DNA from: a virus
Reading direction: 5' to 3' (one strand)
Length of the DNA stretch: 64,000 nt
IMG/VR virus record: IMGVR_UViG_3300047552_002060
Location: 20,775 to 84,774 of that record
Shown here: positions 46,253 to 47,923 of the stretch, piece after piece
Layout: each line of letters opens with the position of its first letter
Position numbering within the stretch: position 1 is the first letter of the stretch
Notes under the pieces: model-generated
Seen by the model: the letters and a program-made list of their open reading frames with translations, nothing else
What the model was told of the DNA's origin: nothing
The model's database searches: none
Position numbers and translations under genes: made by a program

Positions 46253-47923
46253 TTATTCTTCTCCACTTTCATTTTCAGAAATATATCGAATATTACGTTT
46301 GAGAGCTGGTTGTGCGGGCTTCGGTGGCATAGCTGCTCCCTGCTTGCGAACAATTGGCGCTCTTGCTGCTACTACTCGCTTCAGTCTGTCTTGAAGATCA
46401 GGTGTATGGGATGCAGCTATCTGCTCTAGCGATTTCTTAGGAGAAGAGGCAACCGGAGCGGGCAATGATGGTTTCTTAACACCAGACATCTTCTCTTGAG
46501 CGATCTGACTGGGCGGTGTGAGACTTCCCTGAATAGATTGAATCTCCTCTGGAGAATATGTCTTGACCGGACTTGCTTTTTCAGCTGACATCTTAGTATT
46601 GAAGCTTTTGGCCTTAGCTCGTAATTCACTTGGAATCTCGTCTTGGGCCTTCAATGCTGCTTGCATTAAGCCGTGCATCTTACGGTTCAAGTGCGTTGTA
46701 AATTTAGCTCCACTTGGATGATCGTGGTTATAGTCATTAACAGCCTGAAACAGTGCGTGCACACCTGCCTCGTGTAATAGACCGTGATCAATTTCTCCAC
46801 CGTTCGCTTTTTCAGTAAGACCAAGCTTAGAAAGAACGTGACGAGCGGCCTTACCTATTTGTGGATGGTATTTCGCCACAAATCGATCAACTAGTTTTTT
46901 CTTCGCGGGATCTTTGAGGGCCGAATGATCGCCGAGAACGGTATTGACATCAGCACGAACCTCTGGATCTAAAGTGTCTAAATCTGAGACATTCGAAAAC
47001 TTTTTAGCCTTCTTGTCATAGTTTTGCATGTACTGCTGAATAAATTCCTGATTGCCAGAAGCGAATGCTGAACCTTTATCTTGCTGAATGCCAGAAGGTC
47101 CACTATCTTCATCATCTCTAGAACCGCCGACATGCTGAATACCTTCTTCTATTGACATTGCTCCAGGTTGTACACCACCGCCAGCAATATGACGAATCTT
47201 TTCGTCTTTCGCTTGACTATATCTCTCCATGGTGTCTGCCCTTTTCTTATGTGCCTCATGATGAGTCAATAAAGCATTAGCTAGATGGTCTGGATTCTGC
47301 TTGTGCCAGTCTTCATGAAATTTCTGTTCCATTTCCATCTGGGTGATTGGATCAGCATTTTGAAACTCAGGAGATTCGGCAAGGGCGCGTTGAGCTTTTT
47401 GTTTATCAGCATAAGAAGTATTGCGAGCCTCTATCAGGCGACCTTGGTGGTGCTTATGCGGGTTTATATGAGCTTGAGCCTCTAGCTTAGACTTATCACG
47501 AGCTCGCTGTTCCCATGGACGAGTGTACTCACGCATGGCAGCAAGTTCTTCTCTAGTGGGTTGCAGATCGCTTGGGATCTCTGACTCAACAGGGGATTTA
47601 CTTTGAGCTGGTTTCACACCCGGTTTCACAATTGTGGGTTTGACAGCTATTTTTTGAGGTTGCTCAACAGGCCTCTCAATCTCTTCTTCTTCAGGTTCTG
47701 CTTGATTTGGTTCAGATTCTTGAGCGGGATCCTCATTACCACCGTCATTCTCTTTGAGCCACTTAGATGCTTCATCGTCTCCTTCTTCACCGAAATCTGA
47801 ATCAGAGTCCAATCCTTCTGCGTCTTGATCTTCATCTATATCAGAATAGTCAGGAGTCTCGTCGGATAGACGTCGACGTGCCTTTAGCAAAAACTCTTTA
47901 ATAGTGTCTAGCGTAGTTGACAT
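46253..47923 (-). CDS. putative internal head protein containing a sigma70 region-2 (FliA-like) domain
   Basis: LHEAGVHALFQAVNDYNHDHPSGAKFTTHLNRKMHGLMQAALKAQDEIPSELRAKAK; N-terminal LLKA motif. Confidence 0.7.
   Translation of the reverse strand: MSTTLDTIKEFLLKARRRLSDETPDYSDIDEDQDAEGLDSDSDFGEEGDDEASKWLKENDGGNEDPAQESEPNQAEPEEEEIERPVEQPQKIAVKPTIVKPGVKPAQSKSPVESEIPSDLQPTREELAAMREYTRPWEQRARDKSKLEAQAHINPHKHHQGRLIEARNTSYADKQKAQRALAESPEFQNADPITQMEMEQKFHEDWHKQNPDHLANALLTHHEAHKKRADTMERYSQAKDEKIRHIAGGGVQPGAMSIEEGIQHVGGSRDDEDSGPSGIQQDKGSAFASGNQEFIQQYMQNYDKKAKKFSNVSDLDTLDPEVRADVNTVLGDHSALKDPAKKKLVDRFVAKYHPQIGKAARHVLSKLGLTEKANGGEIDHGLLHEAGVHALFQAVNDYNHDHPSGAKFTTHLNRKMHGLMQAALKAQDEIPSELRAKAKSFNTKMSAEKASPVKTYSPEEIQSIQGSLTPPSQIAQEKMSGVKKPSLPAPVASSPKKSLEQIAASHTPDLQDRLKRVVAARAPIVRKQGAAMPPKPAQPALKRNIRYISENESGEE

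Follow-up and report, generated by a model that had tools for sequence, protein, structure and literature searches.

The locus and its relatives

The subject of this analysis is a sigma-like gene of a virus, located between positions 46253 and 47923 of a 64,000-nucleotide stretch of DNA (the window) that corresponds to positions 20,775 to 84,774 of the IMG/VR record IMGVR_UViG_3300047552_002060. According to the listing of open reading frames (ORFs), the minus strand of this interval is a single open frame of 556 codons, the coordinates including the stop, and a reading of the plus strand meets many stops. The original prediction, made from the sequence alone, had placed here a gene of 556 residues with a sigma70 region-2 domain. 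That gene is present, its strand being minus, and the peptides quoted from it were all recovered, the stretch KLVDRF...RAKAK representing residues 342-441 (window 46601-46900). The verdict reached below is that of a region-4-less phage sigma with a new architecture.

The source record is 84,774 bp long and carries a completeness rating of 49%, while related records measure 172-177 kb, two of them with terminal repeats. DNA of the window was found in freshwater metagenomes (three DNA sequencing runs, one of them probably the source, from two studies), and no RNA run occurs among the sequencing runs listed as containing it. When 8000 metagenomic candidates were scored, at least 158 relatives of the sigma-like protein were found at E<=1e-3; identity ranges from 36 to 69% among the 120 relatives listed, and one relative (P0097) bears the name ‘specialized sigma subunit’ given by the Joint Genome Institute (JGI). 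A tblastn search of 50,697 phage records with the sigma-like protein returned no match. Compared with the window's capsid protein (56768-58213), identity is about 30% in Herelleviridae capsid proteins of the SPO1 type and 27-29% in the capsid proteins of phages DAC16-23 (Bacteroides) and Mx1 (Myxococcus); in the cultured phages DAC16 and Mx1, chosen for these related capsid proteins, the two family profiles described below (A1 and A3) had no match either. Three samples recur throughout: conservation was counted in a 115-sequence alignment and synteny at 25 distinct IMG/VR loci, and related genomes were scanned in a set of five relatives, four of them rated complete and three of them referred to here as G001, G002 and G003, together with the phage's own record.

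A region 2 of the sigma-28 type

What kind of sigma factor does the segment resemble? Profile A1, built from 35 relatives, was compared with all PDB chain sequences and retrieved WhiG (6pfj_A, E 6.1e-9; 6pfv_A, 7.1e-9) and FliA (9wsf_A and 9wsm_F, 3.2e-8; 6pmi_F, 5.6e-7), the top five chains thus all belonging to the sigma-28 family and the first non-sigma row appearing at E 0.45. Profile A3, restricted to the domain and comprising 20 sequences (that of the window and those of 19 distinct IMG/VR loci), reached FliA at E 8.6e-9 in an alignment spanning FliA residues 17-108, i.e. the whole of domain 2. The claimed likeness to sigma region 2 is hence borne out by family profiles that reach WhiG and FliA at E 6e-9 to 9e-9.

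Searched against 1.84 billion representative proteins, A3 gave 580 matches at E<=1e-3, which fall by length into some 45 long family members, followed by proteins of 106-160 and of 240-290 residues. Among ten non-family matches that were sampled, eight carried Pfam Sigma70_r2 at E<=0.01, six exceeding the curated cut-off, and region 4 was also present in all three sampled matches of about 255 residues. Because the profiles, the PDB matches and these remote Sigma70_r2-bearing matches agree, the likeness is far beyond chance and the homology is real, even though it is too distant for the curated Pfam model. A PHROGs scan assigned the single protein to no family.

Another ORF of the window (20726-21283, plus strand, 185 residues) was considered as a second region-2-only sigma-like protein and found unsupported, hhalign against A3 giving a probability of 0.14, phmmer against PDB nothing and Pfam nothing sigma-like, all three being quick single-sequence tests only.

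Conservation and predicted contact with the host core enzyme

Conservation within the family is strongest exactly at the signatures of sigma region 2.2 (L383, H384, E385, A386, G387, H389 and L391, each invariant or kept in at least 90% of the sequences) and of regions 2.3/2.4 (F408, T410, H411, K415, G418 and L419, invariant or nearly so). When residues 118-460 were co-folded with residues 215-350 of the E. coli beta' subunit, the interface score (ipSAE) was 0.63, 0.63 and 0.64, whereas none of three controls exceeded 0.01; at least 87% of the contacts were common to the runs, and the partner's predicted local distance difference test (pLDDT) value was at least 72. In the calibration of the tool, 58 of 80 solved complexes attained the mark, as did 2 of 110 mismatched pairs. 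The contacts join beta' residues 255-298 and 316-319 with residues 137-144, 345-353 and 375-388 and with some loops of the insertion described below, so that the predicted interface is the canonical one between sigma and core, with regions 2.1/2.2 on the beta' clamp helices. Of the clamp-helix docking envisaged in the original prediction, the score and the canonical interface speak in favour; the result is nevertheless one of model confidence obtained with a stand-in host, and what the co-fold shows is likeness to the sigma-core interface, not binding.

The beta' domain PF00623 was absent from all five related genomes, its control being positive in 14 of 14 genomes. The single-subunit polymerase model PF00940 was silent in the five relatives but equally so in all 14 controls and is therefore uninformative. 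Profile A3 found exactly one match per genome in the five related genomes and in the phage's own record. Since PF00623 is missing and the sigma-like match is single in each genome, these phages appear dependent on the host core polymerase while carrying one sigma-like gene of their own.

Fold and domain order

An AlphaFold2 model built with the 115 sequences has a mean pLDDT of 77, with 276 residues at 90 or above and 372 of the 556 at 70 or above; values mostly exceed 90 over residues 120-460 and are low at 22-118, 467-497 and 523-556. The description of the protein as mostly acidic or disordered was therefore overstated, strong acidity being confined to the linker after the N-terminal helix and the C-terminal tail being basic (Table 1). 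Foldseek's 374 PDB candidates were realigned with VIA-align, and 55 of the 374 chains reach Z>=8, the rows listed being sigma-containing entries: SigB (8x6g_H, Z 10.7, root-mean-square deviation 2.4, 90 aligned), WhiG (6pfj_A, Z 10.4, deviation 3.7, 116 aligned) and FliA (9wsm_F, Z 10.4, deviation 2.0, 78 aligned, model residues 342-428 lying on FliA 16-93). A fold search of BFVD with the whole model returned one uncharacterised protein of an uncultured phage at E 2e-5, followed by weak rows only, which include some phage sigma factors and no named virion protein.

Table 1. Features of the sigma-like gene and its surroundings. Positions are those of the window; residues are those of the sigma-like protein.
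Feature	Residues	Position	Strand	Evidence or remark
Conserved N-terminal helix with L12-x-K14-A15	1-21	47861..47923	-	Helix 2-21, pLDDT 82-85
Acidic low-confidence linker	22-118	47570..47860	-	31 D+E vs 8 K+R of 97 residues; isoelectric point 4.1
Region-1.2-like helix	119-149	47477..47569	-	Structural alignment; 137-144 touch beta' in co-fold
Conserved helical insertion, 186 residues	150-335	46919..47476	-	Between regions 1.2 and 2.1
Sigma region 2.1-2.4, sigma-28/FliA-WhiG type	336-431	46631..46918	-	A1/A3 profiles, VIA-align, co-fold
Two post-region-2 helices, 432-450 and 458-466	432-466	46526..46630	-	R435 and K439 at least 90% conserved
Basic proline-rich tail	467-556	46253..46525	-	15 K+R vs 8 D+E; 12 P
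Head-tail adaptor (neck) gene		45425..46252	-	PDB 8q01_b, E 4.7e-11; phrog_772, phrog_442
Upstream partner up481, 481 residues		47926..49371	-	N-terminal LL(K/R)KA helix; 25/25 loci
-10-type promoter-like element		49726..49734	-	14 nt before ORF 49382-49720 (o112), first gene of the sigma-like run
Short hairpin just upstream of the -10 element		49753..49767	-	Terminator-like in relatives: T-run follows in most loci
11-nt TCCGAAA-containing motif		13095..13105, 13629-13639, 16066-16076; variant 19482-19492	+	Candidate promoters, lead only

Many of the structural rows span the model from residue 119/120 to 427 with only about 90 positions aligned (to residues 13-102 of SigB and 110-446 of E. coli sigma-70), for which reason helix 122-148 is taken to occupy the place of region 1.2 and residues 150-335 to form an insertion ahead of region 2.1. 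The acidic linker, most of which has a pLDDT below 50 and which differs in sequence and length among relatives, sits where group-1 sigmas have region 1.1. The insertion stands at the place of the sigma-70 non-conserved region and has 24 invariant columns in an alignment of 21 sequences; folded alone it forms three long helices and several short ones (pLDDT 68). A fold search with it produced generic long-helix matches (best Z 6.6) and no specific fold, its comparison with PDB sequences nothing below E 0.0069, and an ESM Atlas look-up of residues 118-336 no usable match, every template modelling (TM) score being 0.32 or lower.

Beyond region 2, the two helices of residues 432-466 are possibly a region-3.0-like remnant. 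The tail that follows has a pLDDT below 50 except for a conserved amphipathic helix at 499-521 (window 46361-46429; about 82 over residues 500-520), where R513 is invariant and K515 and R516 are conserved in at least 90% of the sequences. Neither region 3 nor region 4 was recognised by Pfam in any of the 35 relatives or in the protein itself, and after residue 466 the model contains only short helices; in Pfam, the 35 relatives and the model alike there is no signal or room for domains 3 and 4, nor for a sigma finger. The absence of region 4 asserted in the original prediction accordingly holds at the level tested, Pfam region 4 being found in 0 of 35 relatives and the model having two short helices after 466. 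The order of N-terminal helix, acidic linker, region 1.2, insertion and region 2 recalls the N-terminal half of a group-1 sigma, and yet region 2 is sigma-28-type in its sequence.

A 135-residue ORF at 62197-62604 (minus strand; P0121) was examined as a supplier of the missing region 4 and set aside, Pfam region 4 matching it only below threshold and a nine-sequence profile retrieving no PDB sigma. This ORF has four cysteines (C9, C21, C49 and C61) that are invariant in the nine sequences and are followed by a helix-turn-helix, whose sub-threshold match to Pfam Sigma70_r4 scores 18.4 bits here and 22.8 and 18.8 bits in two relatives. In all five related genomes the ORF is conserved, its place being just upstream of the gene for the head protease.

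Genomic neighbourhood

At the related loci the genes follow each other in the order protease, o155, scaffold, capsid, a variable stretch, o112, up481, the sigma-like gene and the adaptor gene, beyond which come an acidic 409-residue protein and further virion genes. The variable stretch after the capsid gene encodes a dTMP kinase and sometimes an A1-like phosphoesterase. On the capsid-gene strand, o112 and up481 directly precede the sigma-like gene in 25/25 loci; the adaptor gene is next downstream in 23/25, the remaining two loci ending there, and the capsid gene lies no more than 10 kb away in 23/25. The synteny expected among related phages is thus found as a fixed order of o112, up481, sigma-like gene and adaptor, and the statement that the gene lies next to a neck gene is correct as well, the neighbouring ORF matching the adaptor/neck protein 8q01_b and its start abutting the stop of the sigma-like gene. 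The product of up481 has no Pfam, PHROG or PDB match; it is rich in histidine (27 His) and has two copies of LPPLLRR[FL]A near its C-terminus. The acidic neighbour at 43965-45194 contains long disordered charged regions, as does the scaffold.

In phages YungSlug and Mx1, hardly anything separates the capsid gene from the adaptor homologue downstream of it, so the block from the kinase gene to the sigma-like gene is an insertion into the classical head-neck junction, and a partly non-structural one. The idea of a ‘late structural block’ therefore stands insofar as the gene lies between the capsid and adaptor genes, whereas the dTMP kinase and the A1-like phosphoesterase found in the same interval make it a weaker context than was supposed. 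Phages with SPO1-type capsids may more widely harbour large enzyme genes between or beside their head and neck genes: in Mx1 (L036) the segment 16702-23008, right after the adaptor homologue, encodes a protein of 1479 residues annotated as NUDIX hydrolase and one of 619 residues annotated as kinase, and the prohead protease gene of that phage is 3.7 kb long.

Two further observations concern the window's head genes. The head protease gene (59542-61650, within the compared stretch 59542-62200) is on the plus strand, opposite to the scaffold, capsid and sigma-like genes, while in every one of the related loci L005-L025 that reach the protease it is on the same strand as those genes, and its orientation in this phage looks like a local inversion. 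Directly after the capsid gene, at 56712-56740 on the minus strand, there is a strong terminator-like hairpin of 12 pairs followed by a T-run; it overlaps the called start of a 496-residue HNH-type ORF, the true start of which is probably further downstream.

The N-terminal LxKA motif

Across the loci, four proteins start with an amphipathic helix ending in L-x-K-[A/S], namely the capsid protein (...ALNKA, then the conserved ITAGYGG), the scaffold (...EELKKS), the up481 product (...LLKKA) and the sigma-like protein (...FLEKARRRLSDE). In the last of these, L12 and K14 are the only invariant N-terminal residues, A15 and R16 being present in at least 90% of the 115 sequences, and L-x-K-A is retained also in clades that are devoid of the downstream RRRLSDE. 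The N-terminal motif pointed out in the original prediction is hence real, as is its occurrence in the capsid and scaffold proteins. In YungSlug, Mx1 and DAC16, the capsid proteins of which are 27-30% identical to that of the window, LxKA likewise stands ahead of the conserved start. Because the motif precedes that start even in such distant capsids, a conserved processing site would fit, and residues 1-21 of the sigma-like protein are a candidate capsid-targeting or cleavage peptide.

The bare pattern is not rare, L.K[AS] occurring at residues 5-40 in 10 of 97 genes of the window versus some six expected, six of the ten being located in the head block. The parts of the literature that could be consulted describe no cleavage specificity of SPO1-type head proteases. 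In nine of the 25 loci (L006, L008, L013-L017, L020 and L022) an extra conserved N-terminal domain of 50-75 residues precedes LxKA; it starts with MP[AG]F[IV][KR], continues with DE.RW.KAK, is missing in the window gene, occurs on no other ORF of those nine loci and belongs to no Pfam or PHROG family.

Promoter-like motifs

Two classes of promoter-like sequence were encountered in these genomes, and both are leads, not proofs. The first is a -10-type element before o112. The same spot holds an exact GGTATAAT in 14 of 20 distinct related loci, and a near-identical element precedes the o155-scaffold-capsid run. TGnTAWWAT has seven intergenic matches in the window, and five of these are found 14-100 nt ahead of genes on the minus strand of the 35-55-kb block. 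In upstream regions of G002, TATAAT is more frequent on the structural side (10/26 vs 4/64 elsewhere, p 4e-4); the corresponding counts are 15/51 vs 8/60 in G003 (p 0.059) and 7/63 vs 6/51 in G001, where there is no difference. The 8-mer GGTATAAT occurs at 18 sites of G002 compared with about nine expected by our own arithmetic, and, because these fall on both strands, it is by itself no marker of late genes. A palindrome at 49749-49759 was dismissed as a promoter box, since relatives show at this place a hairpin preceding the -10 element.

The second class is of the TCCGA type. G002 has 14 such intergenic sites no more than 120 nt before a gene on the same strand, and 13 of them are on the minus strand, which is the non-structural one. 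A weight matrix derived from 11 of the G002 sites gave 24 matches vs 10-12 in five shuffles; its matches at 15 bits or more, five of which were not seeds, are on the minus strand in 16 of 16 cases and lie between 109 and 174 kb. Upstream of genes on the structural and the non-structural side, TCCGA(T/A) was counted 0/26 vs 10/64 times in G002 (p 0.057) and 0/63 vs 6/51 times in G001 (p 0.007). Eight of the G002 sites precede small ORFs without known function that are packed at one end of the block. In the window, three exact copies of an 11-nt motif containing TCCGAAA are all intergenic, 57-63 nt before plus-strand non-structural genes; one of them precedes a phrog_1314 gene, whose orthologue in G002, a 45%-identical relative, has the motif too.

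The available text of a structural report gives the sigma-28 -10 consensus as GCCGATAA, at positions -15 to -8 and with A-11 flipped (PMC12784957), and the CCGAT core of the phage motif corresponds to positions -14 to -10 of that consensus (C-14 C-13 G-12 A-11 T-10). A sigma-28-type domain 2 and a sigma-28-like motif devoid of a -35 element, occurring as they do in the same genomes, would make an attractive, if only putative, pair.

Four of the TCCGA-type sites in G002 have a 10-nt box, CTGCTACGCC, 13-23 nt upstream (155458, 162149, 168188 and 174049, minus strand). Four of the five copies of the box in that genome are intergenic, and the box may serve as an operator or as an upstream element of the promoter. 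Four sites of the same type (109065, 114023, 162117 and 168164) lie 18-23 nt before a start codon with no ribosome-binding site between, and transcripts from them would be leaderless or nearly so if these sites are promoters.

What the sigma-like protein may do

Computation established the homology and the fold, the order of domains and the absence of regions 3 and 4, as well as the conservation and the invariable genomic position. Taken with the co-fold model, they make it likely that the gene product functions as a specificity subunit that binds polymerase and has no region 4; it probably diverts the transcription of the host, and it may travel in the virus particle. In mechanistic terms, a phage sigma subunit reduced to domain 2 would bind the beta' clamp helices of the host core via regions 2.1/2.2, and the core so occupied would then be led to those phage promoters for which a -10-type element suffices, as with T4 gp55. 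The preferred class of target would be the -35-less TCCGA(T/A), which was found only before non-structural genes. The gene itself is probably expressed together with those for the head proteins, because it belongs to the head-neck cluster and is preceded by a -10-only promoter of the capsid-operon type.

Several results weigh against this interpretation. Pfam Sigma70_r2 (PF04542) did not match the single protein at E<=1, no Pfam sigma model matched at that level in any of the 35 relatives (0/35), and a six-frame Sigma70_r2 scan of the own record and the five related genomes found nothing, with a control that was positive in 11 of 14 genomes. Foldseek alone found nothing in PDB at E<=0.001, its best value, among listed rows that are sigma-holoenzyme entries, being 1.7e-3, and the range of the VIA-align Z values carries the tool's warning that it is common for helical proteins. 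The original prediction had counted on a match to sigma region 2 by profile or by structure; the PDB profile matches and the VIA-align overlay provide it, while the Pfam model and the unaided Foldseek search do not. With many holoenzymes solved, the success of the co-fold may be memory of their structures, and E. coli beta' served as a stand-in for that of the actual host. As for the TCCGA class, the strand bias in G003 is not significant (0/51 vs 3/60, p 0.25); the window's 11-mer, when up to two mismatches are allowed, is not enriched (20 found vs 25 expected), only its exact copies standing out; the G002 matrix has 8 matches on the phage's own record vs 7-14 in shuffles and, at 15 bits, only two strong matches each in G001 and G003; and the arginine by which sigma-28 reads the GC of the extended -10 seems unconserved here, as far as the A3 alignment and the accessible part of the sigma-28 report indicate (PMC12784957).

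If the protein is a specificity subunit, where and when would it act? One answer, a special case of the interpretation just given, is that it is made late, targeted to the prohead by its N-terminal helix, packaged and ejected with the DNA, which we consider less likely than not. Trimming by the head protease behind Lys14 (LxK|A), within a peptide common to capsid and scaffold, is an equally tentative detail, as is the suggestion that the sigma-like protein would then be loaded at once on the host core and bring it to -35-less TCCGA(T/A) promoters of the genes expressed first, ahead of all synthesis of phage proteins. The fixed run from o112 to the adaptor gene on the capsid-gene strand, in which the stop of the sigma-like gene abuts the adaptor start, is consistent with such a course, and so are the run's own hairpin and -10-only promoter, which resemble those of the scaffold-capsid run; in phage CKA15, too, late promoters are extended -10 elements without -35, according to the portion of that study available (PMC12282133). 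The LxK[A/S] motif in the capsid, scaffold and up481 proteins, its LxKA form in the capsids of YungSlug, Mx1 and DAC16 and the concentration of L.K[AS] in the head block point the same way. In G002 the candidate cognate promoters stand ahead of closely packed small ORFs that are located at one end of the non-structural block and have a candidate promoter each, a layout typical of immediate-early genes; the location of the sigma-like gene is thus mismatched with that of its candidate targets, and carry-over in the virion would reconcile a capsid-type promoter for the sigma gene with early-type targets, provided that both hold. Precedents, as described in the accessible parts of two papers, are T4 Alt and the T4 internal proteins, packaged via N-terminal propeptides that the head protease cuts (PMC9026906), and the ejected head proteins of SPN3US, which are cut by the prohead protease (PMC10052503). 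On the other side, the capsid-adaptor interval also contains the dTMP kinase and the A1-like phosphoesterase, and the gene arrangement of YungSlug and Mx1 puts the sigma-like gene in an insertion that is not purely structural; the frequency of L.K[AS] in the window hardly departs from expectation; the partly available literature gave no cleavage specificity for this family of proteases; motifs are the sole source for the timing of the gene; in G001, promoters of the TATAAT type are not biased towards either strand; and a phage sigma detected by mass spectrometry in particles of fRuSau02 was judged to have co-purified, in the accessible text of that report (PMC5618024).

A late or middle sigma that resembles T4 gp55 and is not packaged, acting where it is made on -10-only promoters (TATAAT or TCCGA), explains the same data about as well as packaging does, and we regard it as a real possibility that falls somewhat short of even; it is just as conceivable that the disordered tail with its C-terminal helix tethers a co-activator, in the manner of the gp55 tail, which binds the sliding clamp. 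Like gp55, the protein has domain 2 only; gp55 promoters lack a -35 element, and gp55 has an unstructured linker and a C-terminal docking motif (both from the consulted part of PMC2988020), to which the tail 467-556, disordered but for helix 499-521, may be compared. This is, besides, the only sigma-like gene found in the five related genomes, late genes of such a phage would be expected to need one, the structural genes of G002 favour -35-less TATAAT promoters, and both parsimony and the mixed nature of the gene block recommend this reading. It has to contend with the fact that another factor would have to start the loop if the sigma read its own promoter class, that regions 2.3/2.4 resemble sigma-28 and not a reader of TATAAT, and that it offers no role for the N-helix with its capsid-type motif or for the optional extension ahead of it. 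Decoy and purely structural roles fit the pattern of conservation less well. A decoy, with domain 2 occupying the clamp helices and blocking host sigmas without recognising promoters itself, would agree with an interface that is the host sigmas' own, with the lack of region 4 and sigma finger and with a long acidic segment able to mimic nucleic acid; yet the DNA-reading positions F408, H411, K415 and G418, of which a pure decoy needs none, are as conserved as the core-binding helix, and a blocked host core would stop the transcription of a phage without its own polymerase (by the beta' test) as well, all of which renders it improbable. Most improbable is a protein of head assembly or the head interior that has kept an old sigma fold without acting on polymerase: its place among head and neck genes and its long disordered charged regions, similar to those of the scaffold and the acidic neighbour, would suit such a role, but conservation peaks precisely on the region 2.2 and 2.3/2.4 signatures that the co-fold places on beta'.

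Relation to known systems

The closest relatives in sequence and structure of residues 336-431 are the sigma-28 factors, FliA of Pseudomonas, E. coli and Aquifex and WhiG of Streptomyces. The family signature of regions 2.2-2.4 is kept, and the candidate promoter motif has CCGAT in common with GCCGATAA, as given in the accessible part of the sigma-28 report (PMC12784957). Group-3 sigmas have about 240-260 residues and possess domains 3 and 4, both of which the sigma-like protein lacks; in their stead it has some 335 additional N-terminal residues, including the insertion between regions 1.2 and 2.1.

Phage sigmas, among them the domain-2-only gp55, are textbook matter, and packaged whole polymerases as well as packaged polymerase modifiers are known. 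With T4 gp55, the comparison is one of descriptions, not of sequences: both proteins consist of domain 2 only, accompanied by a disordered linker or tail. A difference lies in size, the 556 residues found here contrasting with a far smaller gp55, which we take to have 185 and to be encoded outside the head genes, and another in the partners, gp55 working with gp33 and the sliding clamp. Regions 2.1-2.4 of gp55 have been modelled on the beta' coiled-coil, its promoters lack a -35 element, and it is the smallest member of the sigma family, according to the part of the source available (PMC2988020). The Herelleviridae, whose capsid is of a related type (about 30% identity), use sigmas such as SPO1 gp28 and gp34 and, in Twort-like and P100-like phages, Sig for switching the host polymerase to middle and late genes, as the accessible portions of two studies describe (PMC13401047, PMC12282133), but these are free-standing proteins of about 200-220 residues encoded outside the head cluster. 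In one of these studies, the mapped late promoters of CKA15, a P100-like member of the family, are extended -10 elements without -35 (PMC12282133). In Twort-like fRuSau02, a 220-residue sigma and an anti-sigma were detected in particle preparations by LC-MS/MS and, in the consulted part of the report, judged to have co-purified (PMC5618024). A search of the open-access literature found no packaged sigma described as a genuine virion component.

What, then, is new about this gene? It places a sigma-28-type domain 2 inside a protein of 500-700 residues, with an insertion in the place of sigma-70's non-conserved region and with a genomic place fixed between the capsid and adaptor genes. It is also the only detectable sigma-like gene in widespread freshwater phages of about 175 kb that, by one valid test (PF00623), are without their own polymerase. 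With this family, the extent to which promoters can be specified by domain 2 alone may be studied in a natural setting, and a concrete candidate class of such promoters is at hand.

N4-like, phiKZ-like and crAss-like phages make a whole RNA polymerase late in infection, carry it in the particle and use it on the early promoters of the next host. They are thereby independent of the host core, whereas a packaged sigma would be a specificity subunit that depends on it. If the sigma-like protein is packaged, it would to our knowledge be the first case of a virion-delivered specificity subunit rather than an enzyme. In T4, Alt and the internal proteins IPI-III have an N-terminal propeptide that targets them to the prohead core and is cut by gp21 at a motif also present in the capsid protein, and Alt modifies the host RNA polymerase right after ejection, as far as the available text reports (PMC9026906). 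Alt is, however, an ADP-ribosyltransferase and not a polymerase subunit, and for the sigma-like protein targeting, cutting and ejection are putative. Should packaging prove true, the sigma-like protein would represent a route of takeover between that of T4 Alt, which modifies the host polymerase, and that of N4 and phiKZ, which bring a whole polymerase with them.

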